Origin: Lachnospiraceae bacterium
GTDB taxonomy: Bacteria; Bacillota; Clostridia; Lachnospirales; Lachnospiraceae
Assembly: GCA_016301965.1 (NCBI GenBank)
Contig: JAEDOO010000001.1
Location: forward strand, 4,283 to 68,282
Direction of reading: 5' to 3'
Length of the DNA stretch: 64,000 nucleotides
Shown: positions 3,623 to 56,064 of the stretch, one piece after another
Layout: every line of letters begins with the position of its first letter
How positions within the stretch are numbered: the stretch's first letter is position 1
Notes under the pieces: generated by a model
What the model was told of the DNA's origin: nothing
Database searches by the model: none
Seen by the model: the letters and a program-made list of their open reading frames with translations, nothing else
Translations under genes and position numbers: made by a program

Positions 3623-3655
3623 AAAAGGCTGTTCCTTTATGGGGCAGCTTTTTTT
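3623..3655 (+). terminator. rho-independent terminator after the carbamate kinase-like gene
   Basis: Stem ggctgttcc / ggggcagc (two G-U pairs), 5-nt loop, then T7. Confidence 0.7.
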
Positions 3656-3659
3656 GAAT

Positions 3660-3797
3660 GGGGACGCATCCGCGGCGAAAGACAGAGCCCATAAAAGATG
3701 TCCGGGAAAACGCGCTCTCGCTCCGCCTCAAACGTAGCGGACACTAAGTTCTAGCTTCGCCTTCGGCTTGCTCTCACTAAGTGCCGGCGTTTTCGTA
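3660..3797 (+). repeat. palindromic intergenic repeat, copy A (left arm + core, right arm replaced/truncated)
   Basis: Near-identical to 3823-3960 at a 163-bp offset, with a few substitutions and one 1-nt indel. Confidence 0.9.
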
Positions 3798-3822
3798 GGG
3801 ATTTGCGGGTGGAGTTTTGAGT

Positions 3823-4014
3823 GGGGACGCATCCGCGGCGAAAGACAGAGCCCATAAAAGATGTCCGGGAAAACGCGCTTTCGCTCCACCTCAAACGCAG
3901 CGGACACTAAGTTCGAGCGTCGCCTGTAGGCTTGCTCTCACTAAGTGCCGGCGTTTTCGGAGGGTTTTCCCGGACATCTTTTATGGGCTCTGCCTTACGA
4001 CTCGGATGCTGGGT
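3823..4014 (+). repeat. palindromic intergenic repeat, copy B (complete ~190-bp hairpin-forming element)
   Basis: Perfect 29-bp inverted repeat: 3846-3874 cagagcccataaaagatgtccgggaaaac and 3964-3992 gttttcccggacatcttttatgggctctg. Imperfect pairing extends outward to about 3823 and 4014. The core lies at 3875-3963. Confidence 0.9.
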
Positions 4015-4071
4015 TTGACTGGCAAATTATGTATTGGTGTATTTTGTCTGCAGAAAGGACAATTAAATCAT

Positions 4072-4100
4072 TGAAAAATAATGGATGGTGTGATATACTT
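4072..4100 (+). promoter_or_regulatory. candidate sigma-A promoter for the kinase/surface-protein module (extended -10)
   Basis: TTGAAA (4072-4077), 17-nt spacer, TGaTATACT (4092-4100). This would give a ~290-nt AT-rich leader. Confidence 0.4.
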
Positions 4101-4256: not shown

Positions 4257-4392
4257 ATTATCCAAAGACAATTTTTTAAAGAATAACTGTTTTTTTGCAA
4301 AAGAAACAAATCCAGACCATGAAAATGATAAAGGATACTATAGTTGTAACGGTTAGTGTTGCAGTACGTGCAGCAGAGCAGGAGGTACAAAA

Positions 4393-11300: not shown

Positions 11301-13358
11301 ATGCATAAAGATAACAAATCCACAAATACAGTTCGCCGTATCGGTGCCATGGCTCTGACGGGAATATTATGTCTGGGTGCGGCCGGAAATGACAATCTGC
11401 CTTTCTTTTTACAGGCTGCACATGCTGCAGAGGCAGAAAATAAGGAACGAGCAGCGGGCAGTGATGGTGCCTTTGCGAGTGATCCAGAGGAAAGCATACT
11501 GGAAGAAACAACAGAATCCGTTGTCGATGAAGAAACAACAGATTCTCCTCTGGAAAATGGTACTCAGGACACAGAAGAGAAACCGATAGAAAATCCACAG
11601 GACATACCTGAAGACAATACAAATAGTACAGGTGAAGAGAATTCGGATAATTCCGGGACGCAGAATACAAAACCGGGAAAACCATCCGATGGGGATACGG
11701 ATAAACAAAATAATGGAAATACAGCAGAAAACAGTAGTCCCGCTAATGAACAAAACTCTCAGAAACAGCCTGTCTCTGACGCGGAAAATGAACAGGATAC
11801 TCTGACAGAAGAGGAGGAACAGGAACTCAAAGAAGAAGAGGAACTGGCCGGTGAAGAAGAGGATAATGGAGAAGGAAATGAGGAGCTGATCGCTCAGCAG
11901 ACCATCATCCGGCTTCCAGAGATCGAAGAAGATTTTCGCTTCTGGACAGTTGAACGGGTATACGGTTTTGCTGCAGAAAAATTGACATTTTATGAGGAAA
12001 AGAATGAAAATTCCCGTAAAGTTGGTGAGCTGAAAAAGGATGGTCTTTTGTATGTTCTGCAGACACAGGAAGACGGATGGTATTATGCAGAGTCCGGCGA
12101 TGTTCGCGGATTTATCCGGGAAGATCAGGTGCTTACAGGACAAAAGGCACAGCCGTTGCTTATTCAGTACCAGCAAAAAGCAAAAGATCTGGCGGCCAGA
12201 CGCTCCAGAGAATATACGGGAATTGAACATGCAGTATCTCTGGCAGTCCCGCTGATCGATAAAACAGAAAATCAGGCCTATACATATATCCGGGCGACTG
12301 TTTGTCAGACGGTTGCAGATAAAGTGTATGCTCTCGTACAGGCAGATCGGGTGAACATCCGGGAAGAACAGAACACAGAGGGACGCATCGTTGGCAAACT
12401 ATCCAAAGACAGTCTCTGTTATATTCTGGCAGATCAGGACAGCGACTGGGTATTTGCAGAGTCGGGAAATGTCCGTGGCTTTGTCAAAAAAGAATATCTT
12501 AACATAGCGGACGAAGAAAACCAGCTGGCACAGGAAATCAAAGACAACTGCGAAGAAAACTATGCCACTGCAGAAGAAATCATAGCTCCCGCGGAAAACA
12601 AAGCGCTGTACTACACGCTGACCTCTATTCACTCCGGGAGTCAGCAGTCATCCCTTCGTTCTGAGCTATTGGCATATGCCGCACAGTTTGCCGGTAATCC
12701 TTACAAATGGGGCGGCAGCAGCCTGACAGATGGCACAGACTGTTCCGGATTCGCCAAAGCAATTTACGCAAAATTCGGCTACCAGCTCCCCAGAACCTCC
12801 CGTGCACAGTCTCAATGCGGCACCAAAATCGCGGTAGAAGATGCTCGTCCCGGAGATCTGATATTTTACGCCAAAAATGGACAGGTATATCATGTCGCCA
12901 TTTATGCCGGTGATGGCCGTACGATTGAAGCTGCCAACGAAGAGTTAGGTATAACCTCTCTGAATGCCTTCCGTAAAAATGCAGTATGGGCAGTCCATCT
13001 CCTCAGCGATGACAGAGAAATTCCGCAGGAATCCAGTATCGCAGCAGAGAATACAACAGCACAGGAACAGGGAGAAAGCCTGGGAGAGTATCATATTACC
13101 TACTATTGTCCCTGCGAAGCATGCAGCGATACAGCAGGCACTCTGCAGAAGGATCCCTCTCCCCTGGTAGAAGGCTGCACCGTGGCGGTAAGTCCCCTGA
13201 CAGCTCAGGAAGGAGAACAGCTGATCATCAACAGTCATCTCTACACCGCAATCCATCGAGATGACCTCAGGGAAAACGAAGCATCCATCTATGTCAGCTC
13301 CCACGAAAAAACAACCCAGCTGGCCGAGACAGATACACAACTATACAAGAAAAAATGA
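11301..13358 (+). CDS. secreted peptidoglycan hydrolase: acidic low-complexity region, 2x SH3b, NlpC/P60 endopeptidase, C-terminal 3D-like domain
   Basis: 685 aa with a signal peptide (..FLQAAHA/AE). SH3b-like GWYYAESGDVRGFI and DWVFAESGNVRGFV. NlpC/P60 motifs YKWGGSSLTDGTDCSGF and HVAIYAGDG. C-terminal YHITYYCPCEACSDTAGT resembles 3D/YuiC-type domains. Confidence 0.85.
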   Translation: MHKDNKSTNTVRRIGAMALTGILCLGAAGNDNLPFFLQAAHAAEAENKERAAGSDGAFASDPEESILEETTESVVDEETTDSPLENGTQDTEEKPIENPQDIPEDNTNSTGEENSDNSGTQNTKPGKPSDGDTDKQNNGNTAENSSPANEQNSQKQPVSDAENEQDTLTEEEEQELKEEEELAGEEEDNGEGNEELIAQQTIIRLPEIEEDFRFWTVERVYGFAAEKLTFYEEKNENSRKVGELKKDGLLYVLQTQEDGWYYAESGDVRGFIREDQVLTGQKAQPLLIQYQQKAKDLAARRSREYTGIEHAVSLAVPLIDKTENQAYTYIRATVCQTVADKVYALVQADRVNIREEQNTEGRIVGKLSKDSLCYILADQDSDWVFAESGNVRGFVKKEYLNIADEENQLAQEIKDNCEENYATAEEIIAPAENKALYYTLTSIHSGSQQSSLRSELLAYAAQFAGNPYKWGGSSLTDGTDCSGFAKAIYAKFGYQLPRTSRAQSQCGTKIAVEDARPGDLIFYAKNGQVYHVAIYAGDGRTIEAANEELGITSLNAFRKNAVWAVHLLSDDREIPQESSIAAENTTAQEQGESLGEYHITYYCPCEACSDTAGTLQKDPSPLVEGCTVAVSPLTAQEGEQLIINSHLYTAIHRDDLRENEASIYVSSHEKTTQLAETDTQLYKKK

Positions 13359-13400
13359 GACCCCCAAATAATCAGTCCCATCATTAACAAATCACAAACA

Positions 13401-13577
13401 GGTGTACGGGGAGGGGCTTTATTTGCTTCAGATCCCCCGCAAAACCCTCCGAAAACGCCGGCACTTAGCGAGAGCAAGCGAAAGCGCCGCTCGAGCTTAG
13501 TGTCCGCTGCGTTTGAGGTGGAGCGAGAGCGAGTTTTGCGGGGGATCTGAAGCAAATAAAGCCCCTCCCCGTACACC
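13401..13577 (-). repeat. palindromic intergenic repeat, copy C (same core as A/B, opposite orientation, different arms)
   Basis: Perfect 45-bp terminal inverted repeats (13401-13445 and 13533-13577). The 87-bp core 13446-13532 is the reverse complement of the 3875-3963 core, with a few mismatches. Confidence 0.9.
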
Positions 13578-13580
13578 GTC

Positions 13581-13706
13581 CGTCCCCATCCCTCCCCGAC
13601 GCTGAAAGTCGTCGGGCCTCGTCCCCATCCCGTCCCCGACACTGAAAGTCGTCGGGCCCCGTCCCTCATCCCCCATCCCCCTCCCCGACGCTGAAAGTCG
13701 TCGGGC
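13581..13706. repeat. three tandem mini-hairpin repeats (C-rich on + strand)
   Basis: The unit ..tccccgac(g/a)ctgaaagtcgtcgggc.. occurs 3 times at about 40-46-bp spacing. Each forms a cccgacg/cgtcggg stem with an 8-nt loop. Confidence 0.85.
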
Positions 13707-13829
13707 TCTCATCCGAATCTTCCAATCCAAATTTTTCCTCCCCCCACACATTGCGAATCCCCCCCAATTGTGCTATGCTATTGGCATATATTGAAAAAAT
13801 ATGCCCATTCGGCGAAAGAGAGGCACACT

Positions 13830-21513: not shown

Positions 21514-22254
21514 ATGAAGTCATACGCATTGACAGACGTTGGCAGAGTCAGACATACGAATCAGGATTATCTCTTCGCATCCGATGAACCAATCGGTAAT
21601 CTGCCGAACCTGTATATCGTTGCCGATGGTATGGGAGGCCATAATGCGGGAGATTATGCATCCCGCTGTGCGGTCGGTACGGTGATCGATACTGTACGGG
21701 GGGAAAGAGAATTTAATCCGATACGTATCCTGCATTCCGCCATCGAAAAGGCAAATCAGGAAGTATATACAAAGGCCCAGCAGGATAAGGCACTGGAAGG
21801 TATGGGTACGACAATGGTGGCTGTGACCATTGTGGGAAAATACGCTTATGTGGCCAATGTAGGTGACAGCCGTTTATATGTGATCGGCAGTCAGCTTTTA
21901 CAGATTACCCGGGATCACTCGCTGGTAGGTGAGATGGTACGTATGGGTGAGCTTACAGAAGAAGAAGGACGTGTTCATCCGGACAAAAACATTATTACCC
22001 GTGCATTGGGGATCAATCCTACCGTCAAAGTGGATTTTTTTGATGTTAAACTGGAGGATAACAATAGTATCATGATGTGTTCTGACGGCCTGAGCAATAT
22101 GGTACCGGCCGAAGAGATCTTACAGACTGTACAGTCTTGCGTGGGAGAGCAGAATAAGGCACAGTGTCTGATAGATAAAGCAAATGAGAATGGCGGCAAG
22201 GACAATATTGCCGTTATTGTGATTGAACCGTTTACAGATGAGGTGAATATATGA
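21514..22254 (+). CDS. stp: PP2C-family Ser/Thr phosphatase
   Basis: Motifs TDVGRVRHTNQD, ADGMGGH, MCSDGL and GGKDNI. ATGA overlap with the kinase gene. Confidence 0.92.
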   Translation: MKSYALTDVGRVRHTNQDYLFASDEPIGNLPNLYIVADGMGGHNAGDYASRCAVGTVIDTVRGEREFNPIRILHSAIEKANQEVYTKAQQDKALEGMGTTMVAVTIVGKYAYVANVGDSRLYVIGSQLLQITRDHSLVGEMVRMGELTEEEGRVHPDKNIITRALGINPTVKVDFFDVKLEDNNSIMMCSDGLSNMVPAEEILQTVQSCVGEQNKAQCLIDKANENGGKDNIAVIVIEPFTDEVNI

Positions 22255-24434
22255 TAAATGAGGGTATGTTAATAGGGGAGCGTTACGAGATACTGGGACT
22301 GATCGGTTCCGGCGGTATGGCCGATGTATACAAGGCCAGAGATTCCAAATTAAACCGTCTGGTTGCCGTAAAGGTACTGCGCCAGGAATTTCGTATGGAC
22401 AAGACATTTGTCAGCAAGTTCCAGAAGGAAGCACAGGCAGCAGCAGGTCTGTCTCATCCGAACATTGTCAGTGTATACGATGTAGGTGAGGATGAGAATG
22501 CAAACTTCATTGTTATGGAGCTTGTGGAAGGCATTACACTGAAAGATTACATTAAAAGAAAGAAGAAGCTGAGCGTCAGAGAAGCCACCAGTATTGCCAT
22601 TCAGGTGTCTCTCGGACTGGAAGCAGCGCATAAATGCGGACTGGTACATCGTGATGTTAAACCGCAGAATATCATGATCTCAACAGACGGTAAAGTAAAA
22701 CTGTCGGATTTTGGTATTGCCAGAGCTGCATCTTCCAATACCATCAGCTCAAATGTCATGGGTTCTGTACATTACAGTTCTCCGGAGCAGGTGCGCGGCG
22801 GTTTTGCCAATGCGCAGAGTGATATCTATTCTCTGGGTATTACTTTATATGAGATGGTTACCGGACGAGTTCCATTTGACGGCGACACCAGTGTGGCGAT
22901 TGCCATTAAGCATCTGCAGGAAGAGATCATTCCGCCAAACAAATATGTGCCGGATCTCCCCTACAGCTTAAATCAGATCATCCTGAAATGTACACAGAAG
23001 AGCGTGGACAGACGATATGCCAGCATGGCAGATCTGATCATGGATCTGAAACGTTCCCTGGTAGATCCTAATGGAAATTTTGTGGAGCTTGCACCGTTGT
23101 CCAGCCATGCGCAGACGATCATGCTGTCCAAGGCAGAGATGGAAGCTATCCAGGCTGCTTCCGGCTCCCGTTATGAGGATGACGACGATGACGATGAGGA
23201 TGATGACGAGGAGGAAGAAAGACCGAGACGCCGCCGTTCCAGCCGGTATGATGAGGATGATGACGACGAGGATGACGAGGATGAGGGCGGCATCAGCGGT
23301 GCGCTGGAAAAGGCCATGACCATCGGCGGATTTATTATCGGAGCAATTATTATCGTTCTTTTGGTTGTATTTATCTGCAAAGCTGCCGGCCTGTTTGGAA
23401 ACAGCAGCAAGCCGGAAAGCTCTTCTGTAGTTCCTTCTTCCAGCAGTGTGGTTGCGCAGAGCAGCCAGGTCGAGGATACCGGAAAGGTTACTGTACCGGA
23501 TATTACAGGAAAAACAGTAAGTGAAGCACAGGAGATCCTTAACAAACTGCAGCTTGGTATCGCAAAAGGCGGCGAGGCTGCATCGGATACCGTTGCAGAG
23601 GGCCTGATCATATCACAGGATCTGATGGAAGGGACGACTGTAGCCACACATTCTACCGTGTATTATGTGATCAGTACCGGTGTGGCAGATATTACCGTGC
23701 CGGATGTCACAGGAAAAAGTCAGACCGTTGCCGAGACAACACTGAAATCCAGCGGACTGGAAACAAAGATCACACAGGAAAACAGTGATACTGTTCCCAT
23801 TGGTGATGTTATCCGCACCAATCCCAAAGCTGGTACAGAAGTATCTACCGGAAGTACAGTAGAAGTGGTTGTCAGCCTTGGAAAAGAAGATACACAGGTA
23901 GAAGTACCCAACGTTTACGGCGTTTCTGAAAATACAGCAAAGAAGACTTTGACCAATTTAAATCTTACGGTTGTGGTGGACACAGGTACCAGTACTAAGG
24001 TAAAAGCCGGAGAAGTTATGGCGCAGAGTATCAAAGCCGGTACGAAAGTAGACCAGAAGACAGAAATTACAATTACCGTCAACAGTGGAGCAGATACCAC
24101 ACAGGATCCGGATACTGCTGGCGACGCTACAGTGACACCGGGCGAAGAGGATGAGGATGACGAACAGCAGGAAGCCAAGGTATGGGCCTGCAATCAGCGT
24201 CTGGATACACCGCCAAATTACAGCGGCGGCCCCGTCAAACTGACCTTGTCACAGGTGGTAGACGGACAGACGGTAGAGAAGACCGTTGTAGAGAATGAAA
24301 GTCCGGAATTCCCGCTGACCTTCAGTACAGAAGGTGCTGAGGGTGTAAGTGTAGGTACCGTATATGTGTATGAGAAGATCGATGGGGAATACAAGAAGAT
24401 CGCCAAGTACACAGTTCCTTTTGAAGAATATTAA
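22251..24434 (+). CDS. prkC: PASTA-domain Ser/Thr protein kinase
   Basis: Kinase motifs GSGGMADVYKA, VAVKVL, HRDVKPQN and DFGIA. One TM segment and three PASTA repeats (VTVPDITGK, ITVPDVTGK, VEVPNVYGV). Confidence 0.93.
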   Translation: MINEGMLIGERYEILGLIGSGGMADVYKARDSKLNRLVAVKVLRQEFRMDKTFVSKFQKEAQAAAGLSHPNIVSVYDVGEDENANFIVMELVEGITLKDYIKRKKKLSVREATSIAIQVSLGLEAAHKCGLVHRDVKPQNIMISTDGKVKLSDFGIARAASSNTISSNVMGSVHYSSPEQVRGGFANAQSDIYSLGITLYEMVTGRVPFDGDTSVAIAIKHLQEEIIPPNKYVPDLPYSLNQIILKCTQKSVDRRYASMADLIMDLKRSLVDPNGNFVELAPLSSHAQTIMLSKAEMEAIQAASGSRYEDDDDDDEDDDEEEERPRRRRSSRYDEDDDDEDDEDEGGISGALEKAMTIGGFIIGAIIIVLLVVFICKAAGLFGNSSKPESSSVVPSSSSVVAQSSQVEDTGKVTVPDITGKTVSEAQEILNKLQLGIAKGGEAASDTVAEGLIISQDLMEGTTVATHSTVYYVISTGVADITVPDVTGKSQTVAETTLKSSGLETKITQENSDTVPIGDVIRTNPKAGTEVSTGSTVEVVVSLGKEDTQVEVPNVYGVSENTAKKTLTNLNLTVVVDTGTSTKVKAGEVMAQSIKAGTKVDQKTEITITVNSGADTTQDPDTAGDATVTPGEEDEDDEQQEAKVWACNQRLDTPPNYSGGPVKLTLSQVVDGQTVEKTVVENESPEFPLTFSTEGAEGVSVGTVYVYEKIDGEYKKIAKYTVPFEEY

Positions 24435-54922: not shown

Positions 54923-54958
54923 CGAAAAAAGTAAACCATTGTTCAGGAGGAAAGAAAC

Positions 54959-55234
54959 ATGGCTAAAGAAGCATTAGGAATGATTGAGACCAGAGGTCTT
55001 ACTGCTGCTATCGAAGCTGCAGATGCAATGAGCAAAGCAGCAGAGGTTGCTCTGGTAGGAACAGAGAAGATCGGTTCCGGTCTGGTAACCGTTATGGTTC
55101 GTGGTGATGTAGGTGCCGTTAAGGCTGCCGTAGAAGCTGGAAGCGCAGCAGCATCCAGACTTGGCGAGCTGGTAGCTACACATGTAATCCCGAGACCGCA
55201 TGAGGACGTTGAGAAGATCCTTCCGAGAATCTGA
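54959..55234 (+). CDS. pduA: BMC-H shell protein (PduA/EutM type)
   Basis: [58 protein letters not shown]. Confidence 0.92.
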
Positions 55235-55258
55235 TCCTGAGACATCATTGGAGGAATC

Positions 55259-55546
55259 ATGGGAAAATCATATGGCTTTTTTGAAGTACCCGGTGTCGTA
55301 GCAGCTATGGATGCACTGGATATTATGTGCAAAACATCAGATGTTGTACTGGCCAGCTGGGAACGTAAGATGGGTGGCCGTCTGGTAACCCTGATTATTG
55401 AAGGAGATGTATCTTCTGTTCAGCAGGCAATCGATGCGGCATGTGAAAAGTGTATCAAAAAACCTGCTTGTCACGCAGTCATAGCACGTCCCCATGAAGA
55501 GATCGTACGTATCGTTGAGCGCAGCGCGAAACGGTGGAAGAAGTAG
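55259..55546 (+). CDS. BMC-H shell protein (divergent)
   Basis: [50 protein letters not shown]. Confidence 0.8.
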
Positions 55547-55557
55547 GGGGACACGAC

Positions 55558-56064
55558 ATGGCGGAAATTAAAAAGACAACCAGTAAAGCAGCTGCCCCTA
55601 AAAAAGCTGTTGCGGCGCGTACGAGTGCTGCAGGTACAACAGCAAAAAAGGTAACAGCAAAGAAACCGGCTGCCGCTCCGAAAAAAGAGAGTGCAGCTAA
55701 GACTGCCGCTGCAGATGCAGCTGAGGCAGATAAAATCGTTAAAAATGTGGGCGAAGCCCCGATTATCCACAAGGAGGAAAAAAGAATGGCACAGGAAGCA
55801 TTAGGAATGGTTGAAACCAGAGGTTTAGTAGCAAATATCGAAGCAGCAGATGCTATGTGCAAAGCTGCTAACGTTGCTCTGGTTGGTACAGAGAAAATCG
55901 GTTCCGGTCTGGTAACTGTTATGGTTCGCGGCGATGTTGGCGCTGTTAAATCTTCTGTAGAAGCAGGCGCAAACGCTGCATCCAGACTTGGTGAGCTGGT
56001 AGCTACACACGTAATCCCGAGACCGCACGAGGATGTTGAGAAGATCCTGCCGGCAATCAAATAA
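55558..56064 (+). CDS. BMC-H shell protein (PduA paralogue) with 76-aa basic Ala/Lys/Pro-rich N-terminal extension
   Basis: [43 protein letters not shown]... is followed by a domain roughly 85-90% identical (by eye) to the 54959 product. An in-frame internal ATG at 55786 is preceded by AAGGAGGA. Confidence 0.85.

Follow-up and report, generated by a model that had tools for sequence, protein, structure and literature searches.

Organization of the locus and of the three copies

The 64,000-nt stretch analysed here (positions 4,283 to 68,282 of contig JAEDOO010000001.1 from a Lachnospiraceae bacterium, hereafter the window) contained three copies of a palindromic non-coding element with a common core of 87–89 nt. 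Copies A (3659–3821) and B (3822–4009) were located on the plus strand, and copy C (13401–13588) on the minus strand. All three were intergenic, in a housekeeping region with every gene on the plus strand, and the order was a carB-like gene, uppP, carbamate kinase, copies A and B, a Ser/Thr kinase, a 1686-aa protein with Ig-like domains, an NlpC/P60 protein, copy C, murE, and priA. Copies A and B were positioned between the terminator of the carbamate kinase gene (3623–3655, by eye) and a promoter-like site (4071–4099). Copy C was positioned between the stop codon of the NlpC/P60 gene (13358) and a murE promoter read by eye at ~13751–13785, a region in which a consensus promoter scan found no site. 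The MurE homologues, with names taken from the source records, placed the organism near Blautia and Oliverpabstia, and the sequencing runs containing the region were mainly from pig-gut samples.

Together with the relatives described below, the three copies represent a low-copy family of ~190-base palindromic non-coding elements in gut Lachnospiraceae, which was not previously described. A first-pass annotation, made by reading the letters of the window, had pointed out the three copies and their common core, and the repetition was clear: core segments of 22 and 30 nt had three exact occurrences each in the 64 kb, against 0.00 expected from dinucleotide shuffles. Folding compared with shuffled sequence gave z values of -9.1 for copy B and -14.8 for copy C. 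No fourth copy was found within the 64-kb window by the covariance model of the core with the filters off.

Copy B began with the left-flank motif TGGGGAC (3822–3828), followed by a left arm of 46 nt (3829–3874), a core of 89 nt (3875–3963; 118 bits), and a right arm of 46 nt (3964–4009), which led into a T/G-rich flank (TGGGTTTGA), all on the plus strand. The core was composed of a 5' unpaired segment (GCGCTTTCGCTCC), helix P2, box 1 (3893–3911), an apical hairpin, and box 2 (3941–3959). The arms were 91% complementary in the window and 46/46 in most strains. The 29 arm nucleotides adjoining the core, the inverted repeat seen in the first reading, were perfectly complementary.

Copy C was oriented oppositely. 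In its own orientation, the left-flank motif TGGGGACGGAC (13578–13588, minus strand) was followed by the left arm (13533–13577), a core of 87 nt (13446–13532; 116 bits with the covariance model) with box 1 at 13496–13514 and box 2 at 13450–13468, and a right arm of 45 nt (13401–13445). The arms were complementary at 45/45 positions, as expected from the 45-bp inverted repeat of different sequence that had been reported for this copy. The arms of copies B and C (45–46 nt) were unrelated in sequence, and the compensatory differences next to the core that had been noticed between copies were present.

Copy A consisted of the left-flank motif TGGGGAC (3659–3665), directly 3' of the intrinsic terminator of carbamate kinase, a left arm of 46 nt (3666–3711) without a complementary right arm of its own, and a core (3712–3799; 88.6 bits with the covariance model) with box 1 at 3730–3748 and box 2 at 3777–3795, all on the plus strand. 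The left arm was identical to that of copy B in the window strain and differed from it at four clustered positions in most strains. The core was followed by a right remnant (3800–3821, plus strand), which was a truncated C-type inner arm with the junction GTTTTGAG into copy B, and this stretch was variable or in part deleted between strains. The right flank at 3800–3813 (GATTTGCGGGTGGA) was similar to the C-type inner arm GTTTTGCGGGGGAT, and in strains L038 and L042 the match was almost exact (GGAGGGTTTTGCGGGTGGA), in support of the chimeric nature proposed for copy A. Copies A and B formed a head-to-tail tandem with an identity of 91–95% and a period of 163–164 nt, compared with 163 bp in the first-pass annotation. 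In L044, the tandem pair was reduced to a single fused copy with an A-type left arm and the B right arm.

Distribution of the family

Sequence collections were scanned by exact match to one 19-mer of the core, a scan that the copy of Lachnospira eligens described below would escape. Among genomes taken one per species, five contigs in three uncultured Lachnospiraceae metagenome-assembled genomes (MAGs) were found, and 28 contigs were found in metagenomes. Two scans of viral contigs gave no match. Among plasmids, a sensitive BLAST search with the core matched only one replicon, a 627-kb megaplasmid from Lachnospira ([Eubacterium]) eligens ATCC 27750, in which the copy was located in an unannotated spacer.

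The copies, ~10 independent ones in all, belonged to three lineages. The Blautia-like lineage contained seven independent copies (A, B, and C of the window, and those of L002 to L005), the second was a human-gut locus between fmt and a membrane-protein gene, which was sampled in 25 assemblies, and the third was L. eligens. Every further copy contained a conserved centre within its own self-complementary arms. The repeat was not restricted to the three copies of the window, with related copies in at least three other Lachnospiraceae lineages, and its core covaried. The copy number was low, with three copies in 64 kb, two places on the 627-kb replicon of L. eligens, of which the first 100 kb contained no copy, and a handful of contig variants per metagenome.

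The family had not been recognised in the first reading, and it remained without a match in Rfam, phages, viral contigs, or the literature. No match was found over the whole window at the gathering thresholds of Rfam 15, which includes ribozymes, 6S, SRP, attC, and CRISPR repeats. At E-values of up to 10, the regions around copies A and B, copy C, and the L. eligens copy gave only chance-level matches (E ≥ 0.37, far below the gathering scores). Literature searches by sequence and by keyword found no description of the family. A role of the arms as guides or spacers was rejected, as six arms had no match in 50,697 phage records and the element matched only the L. eligens megaplasmid among plasmids. 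Several motif resemblances, which may serve at most as leads, were set aside as coincidences, namely those to the MOBQ oriT nick region (TAAGTGC), the Noc site (TTTCCCGG), the CodY box, dif, the B. subtilis Ter/RTP site, the Cas12a repeat loop (CUAAGUG), SRP RNA, and twister. The fit was limited in every case to one subfamily or a 7–8-mer, without Rfam or BLAST support.

Fold of the core and the conserved boxes

In their own orientation, the Blautia-like copies were composed of a flank ending in ..GGAC, the left arm, the unpaired segment, P2, box 1, the apical hairpin, box 2, P2', the right arm, and TG with a T/G-rich flank. The left flank ended in ..GGAC in every long-arm copy and was usually TGGGGAC or GGGACGGAC. 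The 5' unpaired segment was 14–17 nt long and pyrimidine-rich (CGCTYTCGCTCC). Box 1 (CGC-AG-CGG(T)ACTAAG) and box 2 (CTAAGTGCCG-GCG) paired with each other, and the resulting helix contained a conserved AG bulge of 2 nt, one A–A mismatch, and one T/U–G pair. The boxes were identical in all three lineages, whereas the flanking genes of the human-gut locus shared only ~66% DNA identity with the window. P2 covaried, with GGAAGTGCGC/GCGCACTTCC in L. eligens and AAACGC/GCGTTT in the other lineages. The apical hairpin was variable, and the spacing between the boxes differed among the copies.

The fold was tested with 16 sequences aligned to the covariance model, and the values below are to be read with the fact that a model-fitted alignment favours the structure. 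Paired cells amounted to 93.4%, compared with 85.5% in shuffles, and 19 pairs were changed on both sides, compared with 6.1 +/- 1.7 in shuffles, none of 500 of which reached 19. When the partners were slid by 1–3 columns as a control, pairing was 36–48%. Even with the bias of the alignment, the contrast was large, and an independent MAFFT/RNAalifold run agreed with the fold. Together with the pairing of the arms described below, the evidence of covariation was overwhelming. The core, which had been described as an imperfect palindrome, therefore folds to an imperfect hairpin with covarying helices.

Invariant nucleotides around internal loops and bulges, flanked by covarying helices, are the usual signature of functional RNA. 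The element might accordingly be a stand-alone structured RNA of one strand, such as a new self-cleaving ribozyme, a small RNA, or an RNA that sequesters protein. In that case, the boxes would be its active or binding centre, and P1 would be formed by the long stem. Both strands folded about equally well, however, and no Rfam family, including all ribozyme classes, matched the element up to E = 10. The strand and transcript evidence on this explanation is given below.

The apical stem was related in sequence to the unpaired 5' segment (CGCTC..CGCTC): its 3' strand was a near-direct repeat of the segment, and its 5' strand was complementary to it (for example, 3875–3888 and 3930–3938). In L. 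eligens, the complementary strand was the 3' one instead. This complementarity, which shifted with the apical stem across the three lineages, suggests an alternative pairing. The same near-direct repeat of the unpaired segment and the apical 3' strand was the site of the box-1 deletion in L016, L024, and L028. Box 2 was also observed in another context. At the end of a contig of a mouse-gut Lachnospiraceae MAG (L001, 1–170), upstream of an AddA/UvrD-like helicase gene, tandem 82-nt repeats contained box 2 (CTAAGTGCCGGCGTTTT(T)CGAAGG), and box 1 and the arms were absent. It is therefore possible that repeats of other types also use box 2 as a module.

Pairing of the arms and mirrored substitutions

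Six independent long-arm copies were compared, anchored at the core boundary. The arms formed Watson–Crick pairs with their own partners at 260 of 264 positions (98.5%), and two more positions were G–T. Pairing with the arms of other copies was 34.5% in the outer 28 positions and 72.9% in the inner 16 positions. At most arm positions, three or four pair types were present among the copies. Conservation fell off outward from the core; the 12–19 nt adjoining the core were conserved within subfamilies, and the outer 25–30 nt were unrelated between copies, even inside one genome. The arm length differed by lineage, with 45–52 nt in the Blautia-like copies, 19–23 nt at the human-gut locus, and 26–27 nt in L. 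eligens. The conserved centre with variable, self-pairing arms, as put forward in the first-pass annotation, was found in every further copy, but the arms were not variable throughout, given the conserved core-adjacent nucleotides and the flank motif (T)GGGGAC.

Several changes occurred in both arms together. In copy C of the independent assemblies L045 and L046, a G-to-A substitution in one arm (13533–13577) was accompanied by a C-to-T substitution at the paired position of the other arm, and the surrounding DNA, otherwise nearly identical to that of the window, differed mainly in the number of small-hairpin units described in the last section. At the human-gut locus, the arms contained either AATAT/ATATT or AAGAT/ATCTT, and the mismatched intermediate AAGAT/ATATT was present in several assemblies. 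The arms of copy B were perfectly paired (46/46) in eight of 11 strain contigs. In the window strain, L038, and L042, the left arm of copy B was overwritten by the A variant, which resulted in four mismatches, and the fused copy of L044 had the same mismatches; they were limited to these strains and were not typical of the locus. The partnerless left arm of copy A had four differences from the B arms, which were clustered within 10 nt. Variants of the apical loop and of the boxes were shuffled between copies A and B across strains. Wobble pairs accounted for 0.8% of the arm positions (2/264).

Far more wobble pairs are expected in stems shaped solely by selection on RNA pairing. The mirrored substitutions, the mismatched intermediates, and the scarcity of wobble pairs therefore argue for arm-to-arm copying and not for slow compensatory selection. 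Template switching in replication perfects quasipalindromes and yields one-step and multi-base 'compensatory' changes, and hairpins are created and maintained by template-switch mutations, with maintenance possible without selection (PMC8794818). The marks of quasipalindrome correction, which are mirrored substitutions, clustered multi-base changes, and mismatched intermediates, were all present here, and arm-to-arm template switching is probably the proximate mechanism by which the stem was perfected. The present arms resemble the published quasipalindromes in their mirrored single and clustered changes, population intermediates, and scarce wobble pairs, and differ in that 45–52-bp arms surround a constrained core, whereas the published work (PMC8794818) describes a mutational mechanism on short stems of known RNA genes.

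The mirrored changes recurred in independent assemblies from different samples and different assemblers, and most of the data were short-read metagenome assemblies, which are prone to mishandling palindromes. The 45-nt arms are probably shorter than the final word lengths of the assemblers. The element represents a probable natural case of template switching at population scale, in which both arms of a long stem change together while the intermediates still segregate. It is relevant to the long-standing problem of how pairing is maintained in long helices, and it illustrates that selection can be overestimated from covariation alone.

Orthologous loci: divergence, gain and loss, and damage

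In the sister species (L002 and L010), the element was located at the same place, after the carbamate kinase terminator, and the coding flanks were 89% identical to the window. Between the window and the sister species, the core was ~85% identical, the four-fold degenerate sites 65%, and the outer arms 43–47%, yet each element was still paired at 41–46 of 46 arm positions. The arms at the orthologous locus had thus diverged in place, slightly faster than the four-fold degenerate sites. They had been called exchangeable in the first-pass annotation, but they were not swapped as modules, and real chimerism was present only in copy A.

In three relatives whose carbamate kinase was 84–93% identical, the terminator was followed directly by the promoter, without the element. 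A relative with a 90% identical MurE was without copy C, the small-hairpin units, and the NlpC/P60 gene. Within species, no presence/absence polymorphism was observed among 11 strains at the A/B locus and 25 at the human-gut locus. Absence between species without polymorphism within them indicates that the element was gained or lost on the timescale of speciation and was not actively hopping.

Damaged variants were also present. Strains of the human-gut species had either a 45-nt internal insertion or a deletion that removed box 1 (L016, L024, and L028), which lay between two similar direct repeats, the unpaired segment and the apical 3' strand. In L044, the unpaired 5' segment was heavily mutated.

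Tolerance of these variants would be expected of a neutral relic, that is, an old palindromic insertion in which arm-to-arm conversion keeps the palindrome and conversion between copies keeps the cores alike. The latter process was visible in the variants shuffled between copies A and B and in the left arm of copy B overwritten by that of copy A, and hairpins can persist through template switching without selection (PMC8794818). Within-genome concerted evolution, however, cannot account for boxes that are identical, and helices that covary, across genera with only ~66% DNA identity in their genes. Rather than decaying, P2 and the apical stem covaried, and the core was ~85% identical between the sister species, compared with 65% for the four-fold degenerate sites. 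The persistence of the palindrome would itself need explaining, given that long palindromes are prone to deletion. For these reasons, a relic is the least probable of the explanations considered here. Persistence through speciation and covariation across genera imply that selection acts on the core and on the closure of the stem, beside templated copying. The selection on a long hairpin or cruciform proposed in the first-pass annotation was thus retained in part. Perfect pairing alone is not evidence of such selection, because the mirrored changes point to templated copying, but selection for a closed stem is implied by persistence and by covariation.

Position, orientation, and transcription

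All seven copies with readable neighbours were located within ~130 nt downstream of a stop codon, and four of them within ~25 nt without an intervening terminator. In L003, L004, and L005, a co-oriented gene ended with its stop codon ~20 nt or less before the left arm, and in L. eligens this distance was 3 nt. Contigs assembled from metatranscriptome runs continued past the upstream genes and reached copy A and the first 30 nt of the arm of copy C, which hints that the elements are transcribed by read-through. The stops ~30 nt into the arms probably reflect an assembler word size of ~31 nt in a palindrome and not a transcript end. The search for RNA suggested in the first-pass annotation thus gave contigs that reached copy A and the first arm of copy C, but no discrete contig of a transcript confined to the element, from data that were unstranded.

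These results bear on the structured RNA introduced above. Five of eight loci were co-oriented with the upstream gene and directly followed it, and the non-canonical pairs were mostly G–U in the element's own orientation (~8 G–U against 3 A–C events), although this ratio was too weak to be used for the choice of strand. On the other hand, no promoter-like site was found upstream of the left arm, three loci had the opposite orientation, wobble pairs were nearly absent from the ~46-bp stems, and no high-depth contig confined to the element was present in the RNA runs examined. A stand-alone RNA is considered unlikely.

The symmetry of the element and the equal folding of both strands are in turn what a double-stranded or cruciform DNA site would show, at which a host protein of chromosome organisation, replication, or recombination would bind the boxes as inverted half-sites. 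Strictly Watson–Crick arms are expected if both strands fold, the copy number is low, copies A/B and C are opposed at a distance of 9.4 kb, and the chimeric copy A fits a past recombination of copies in opposite orientation. The variable spacing of the boxes would be awkward for a dimer on duplex DNA, however, and both the bulge and the unpaired 5' segment lack symmetry. In none of 36 strain assemblies was the core inverted relative to its flanks, and the resemblances to Noc, CodY, dif, RTP/Ter, and MOBQ nick sites each applied to only some of the copies. Such a site is very unlikely, only slightly less so than the neutral relic.

Comparison with known systems

The element was compared with the known classes of palindromic repeats. 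REP/REPIN sequences, which are associated with RAYT in Proteobacteria, are likewise non-coding, extragenic, and palindromic, are located at gene 3' ends in either orientation and sometimes in tandem, contain a short conserved linear motif that abuts the hairpin, and can form hairpins in mRNA 3' ends. Their palindrome is conserved and the REPIN loop variable, whereas the reverse was found in the Lachnospiraceae element, and REPs number hundreds per genome, compared with three copies in 64 kb or two places on a 627-kb replicon. A conserved 20–40-nt palindrome and a 5' GTAG were absent from the Lachnospiraceae element, and no RAYT gene was encoded next to any copy.

ERIC/IRU, Correia, and RUP elements are similarly imperfect palindromes of 100–200 nt in intergenic, transcribed regions, with variants whose internal insertions or deletions occur at set places, like the 45-nt insertion and the loss of box 1 observed here. 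They are conserved over the full length and above all at the ends, and many have target-site duplications, neither of which applied to the present element. The terminal repeats of a MITE were absent, as the outer arms paired at 34.5% with foreign arms compared with 98.5% for own arms overall, and only the 12–19 core-adjacent nucleotides were common. No direct repeat abutted the arms in seven long-arm copies, whose flanks were ..GGAC on the left and TG with a T/G-rich stretch on the right. The element was absent from the orthologous site in three related species, no polymorphism of its presence was seen within a species, and the only IS nearby, of the IS605 family, had unrelated ends. The contrast with a classical MITE that had been drawn from the window was therefore sound, with both conserved terminal repeats and target-site duplications missing.

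Structured motifs of RNA or single-stranded DNA, such as attC and ssoA, share a conserved structure with little conservation of the stem sequence, bulged or mismatched bases in a long hairpin, and function as a folded strand. Integron attC sites have conserved R''/R' boxes at the outer ends and a variable centre and are located in cassette arrays beside an integrase, whereas the arrangement here was reversed and the neighbours were housekeeping genes; the Rfam model of attC had no match to the element. Single-strand origins of the ssoA type lie on rolling-circle plasmids, a context unlike that found here, and the likeness to them is tentative. A retron msr-msd was rejected, as the flanking genes were carbamate kinase, Ser/Thr kinase, NlpC/P60, and MurE, without a reverse transcriptase. 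A CRISPR repeat was also rejected, as no Rfam family reached the threshold. The family thus has the lifestyle of the REP/ERIC/MITE class without its defining features, and its logic is that of a conserved loop/bulge module inside covarying helices.

The likeness to REP and IS200/IS605 hairpins leads to a further explanation, in which the element is mobile as single-stranded DNA. The box hairpin and the ..GGAC flank would be cut by a nuclease or transposase encoded elsewhere, for example of the Y1/HUH type, and snap-back synthesis at the core hairpin would copy the flank into an inverted duplicate, so that every copy would end up with perfect arms of its own. Acquisition or loss at the A/B and C sites among related species, unrelated loci in both orientations, boxes identical across genera as horizontal spread predicts, and arms unrelated even inside one genome all agree with this explanation, as does the conserved short linear motif that abuts the variable hairpin and also precedes the small hairpins of variable number at 13590–13714. 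The presence of the element, however, was not polymorphic within species (11 and 25 strains), no two copies had the same arms, as recent transposition would leave, no target-site duplication was found, and the copy number was very low. Open-ended snap-back synthesis predicts neither the narrow range of arm lengths (45–52 nt) nor the conserved outer flanks. The flank motif was not conserved in the other two lineages, and no candidate enzyme gene was located nearby. Mobility as single-stranded DNA is therefore unlikely, although it is the main rival of the interpretation given below.

An IS200/IS605-family element was present ~70 nt downstream of the right arm of copy B (at ~4085 of the window) in L043 (from ~4420) and L044 (460–2300), and it encoded a Y1 TnpA and a TnpB (OrfB_IS605/Cas12f-like). 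It was rejected as a related autonomous element, since its ends were unlike those of the repeat and the insertion was ~70 nt away.

Proposed organization and function

The interpretation that we favour, tentatively and at somewhat less than even confidence, is that of a non-coding hairpin cassette at gene 3' ends, in which the core serves as a recognition module, and template switching and selection for closure jointly keep the stem perfect. The ~90-nt core would fold on itself through P2 and the box helix, with an apical cap and with the 5' segment left unpaired. The basal stem would close the structure; its sequence would be free and its length set by lineage, 19–27 bp in two lineages and 45–52 bp in the Blautia-like one. 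The arms would be kept complementary mainly at the DNA level, by template switching within the element (arm-to-arm conversion) during replication, so that a change arising in either arm would be lost again or transferred to its partner, with selection for a closed stem on top. The invariant box module would most likely be the recognition site of a trans-acting factor, presented by the long stem. Since the copies closely follow stop codons, the form in the cell would be a large hairpin at the 3' end of the mRNA of the upstream gene, where it may serve as a barrier to 3'-exonucleases, a substrate of RNase III, or a platform for protein binding.

Several observations weigh against this interpretation. 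Damage was tolerated, in the form of the four arm mismatches (window strain, L038, L042, and L044), the mutated 5' segment (L044), and the box-1 deletion (L016, L024, and L028), which indicates that the element is not essential. The orientation was mixed, with five loci co-oriented with the upstream gene and three opposite to it (copy C, the second copy of L002, and the human-gut locus), and a strand-specific function of the RNA is thus unsupported; the fold energies of the plus and minus strands were similar, without a consistent difference. No consistent uridine tract was found 3' of the stem, and a clear T run was present only in L003, which indicates that the element is not a standard intrinsic terminator. 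A consensus scan for terminators called the arm hairpin of no copy; it called only a 6-pair stem in the right flank of copy B (4007–4024) and none at copy C. The RNA evidence consisted of unstranded assembled contigs, which possibly contained DNA and broke inside the palindrome. No binding factor or associated gene was identified for the family, and conversion alone, without function, could keep the arms perfect.

A more active role of the core is also conceivable but rather improbable, less so than the DNA site and more so than the stand-alone RNA. In this case, the core would be a 'palindrome-organising' module, in which a hairpin of specific sequence and its recognising factor would actively induce one flank to be copied to the opposite side, so that a long, perfect, locus-specific stem would be formed and constantly renewed from any adjacent sequence. 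If this is true, the family would represent a dedicated system for locus-specific perfect hairpins and not a passive quasipalindrome, and the variable stem might carry information, for example as double-stranded RNA or as a hairpin guide.

For the hairpin cassette that we favour, the invariant module is precisely defined, and a recognising factor is therefore directly searchable; L. eligens ATCC 27750 is a carrier available in culture. The family would add a new candidate structured motif to the gut Lachnospiraceae, an abundant group with poor annotation. The palindromes also affect genome data. Short-read assemblies break at them, as all seven murE-carrying contigs ended upstream of murE, at or within copy C or the small-hairpin repeats, and spurious open reading frames (ORFs) are called through them.

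Adjoining repeats and other features

Copy C was abutted on its upstream side by three tandem units of 36–49 nt (13590–13714, minus strand), which were oriented like copy C. Each unit contained a G-rich motif (..ATGGGGACG.., also written ..GGGATGGGGACG..) and a small hairpin, CCCGACGAC-TTTCA-GCGTCGGG, with a stem of 8 bp. The number of units was 1, 2, or 3 depending on the strain, and the array is thus a variable-number tandem repeat, which lies immediately upstream of the putative murE promoter. The G runs on the minus strand of 13590–13714 make the formation of a G-quadruplex possible.

Copies A/B on the plus strand and copy C on the minus strand, opposed to each other, flanked a 9.4-kb block that encoded the Ser/Thr kinase, the 1686-aa surface protein with Ig-like domains, and the NlpC/P60-SH3 hydrolase. 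The gene content of this block varied in relatives; L055 was without NlpC/P60, and L057 and L062 contained a PP2C phosphatase. In L002, of the sister species, only ~270 nt separated a B-like copy from a C-like one, and the two faced each other just before the contig end. The chimeric arms of copy A are compatible with a past recombination between opposed copies.

ORFs extended through the repeat at 3817–4074 and 13289–13669 of the window, 3973–4185 of L043, and 189–599 of L044. Such ORFs were called hypothetical proteins of 70–136 aa in public assemblies, and they are almost certainly spurious. A repeat-spanning ORF was also tried as a probe for further copies and abandoned, as a protein database search gave two matches, both from the same locus.

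Two other repeats were present elsewhere in the window. Direct repeats of 196 and 84 nt, 81–90% identical and 827 nt apart, were located at 54945–56058 and probably mark adjacent paralogous genes. A low-complexity repeat rich in GAT, GAC, and GAG (23178–23284) was located in a 727-aa ORF (22251–24434), in which it would encode an acidic stretch rich in Asp and Glu.

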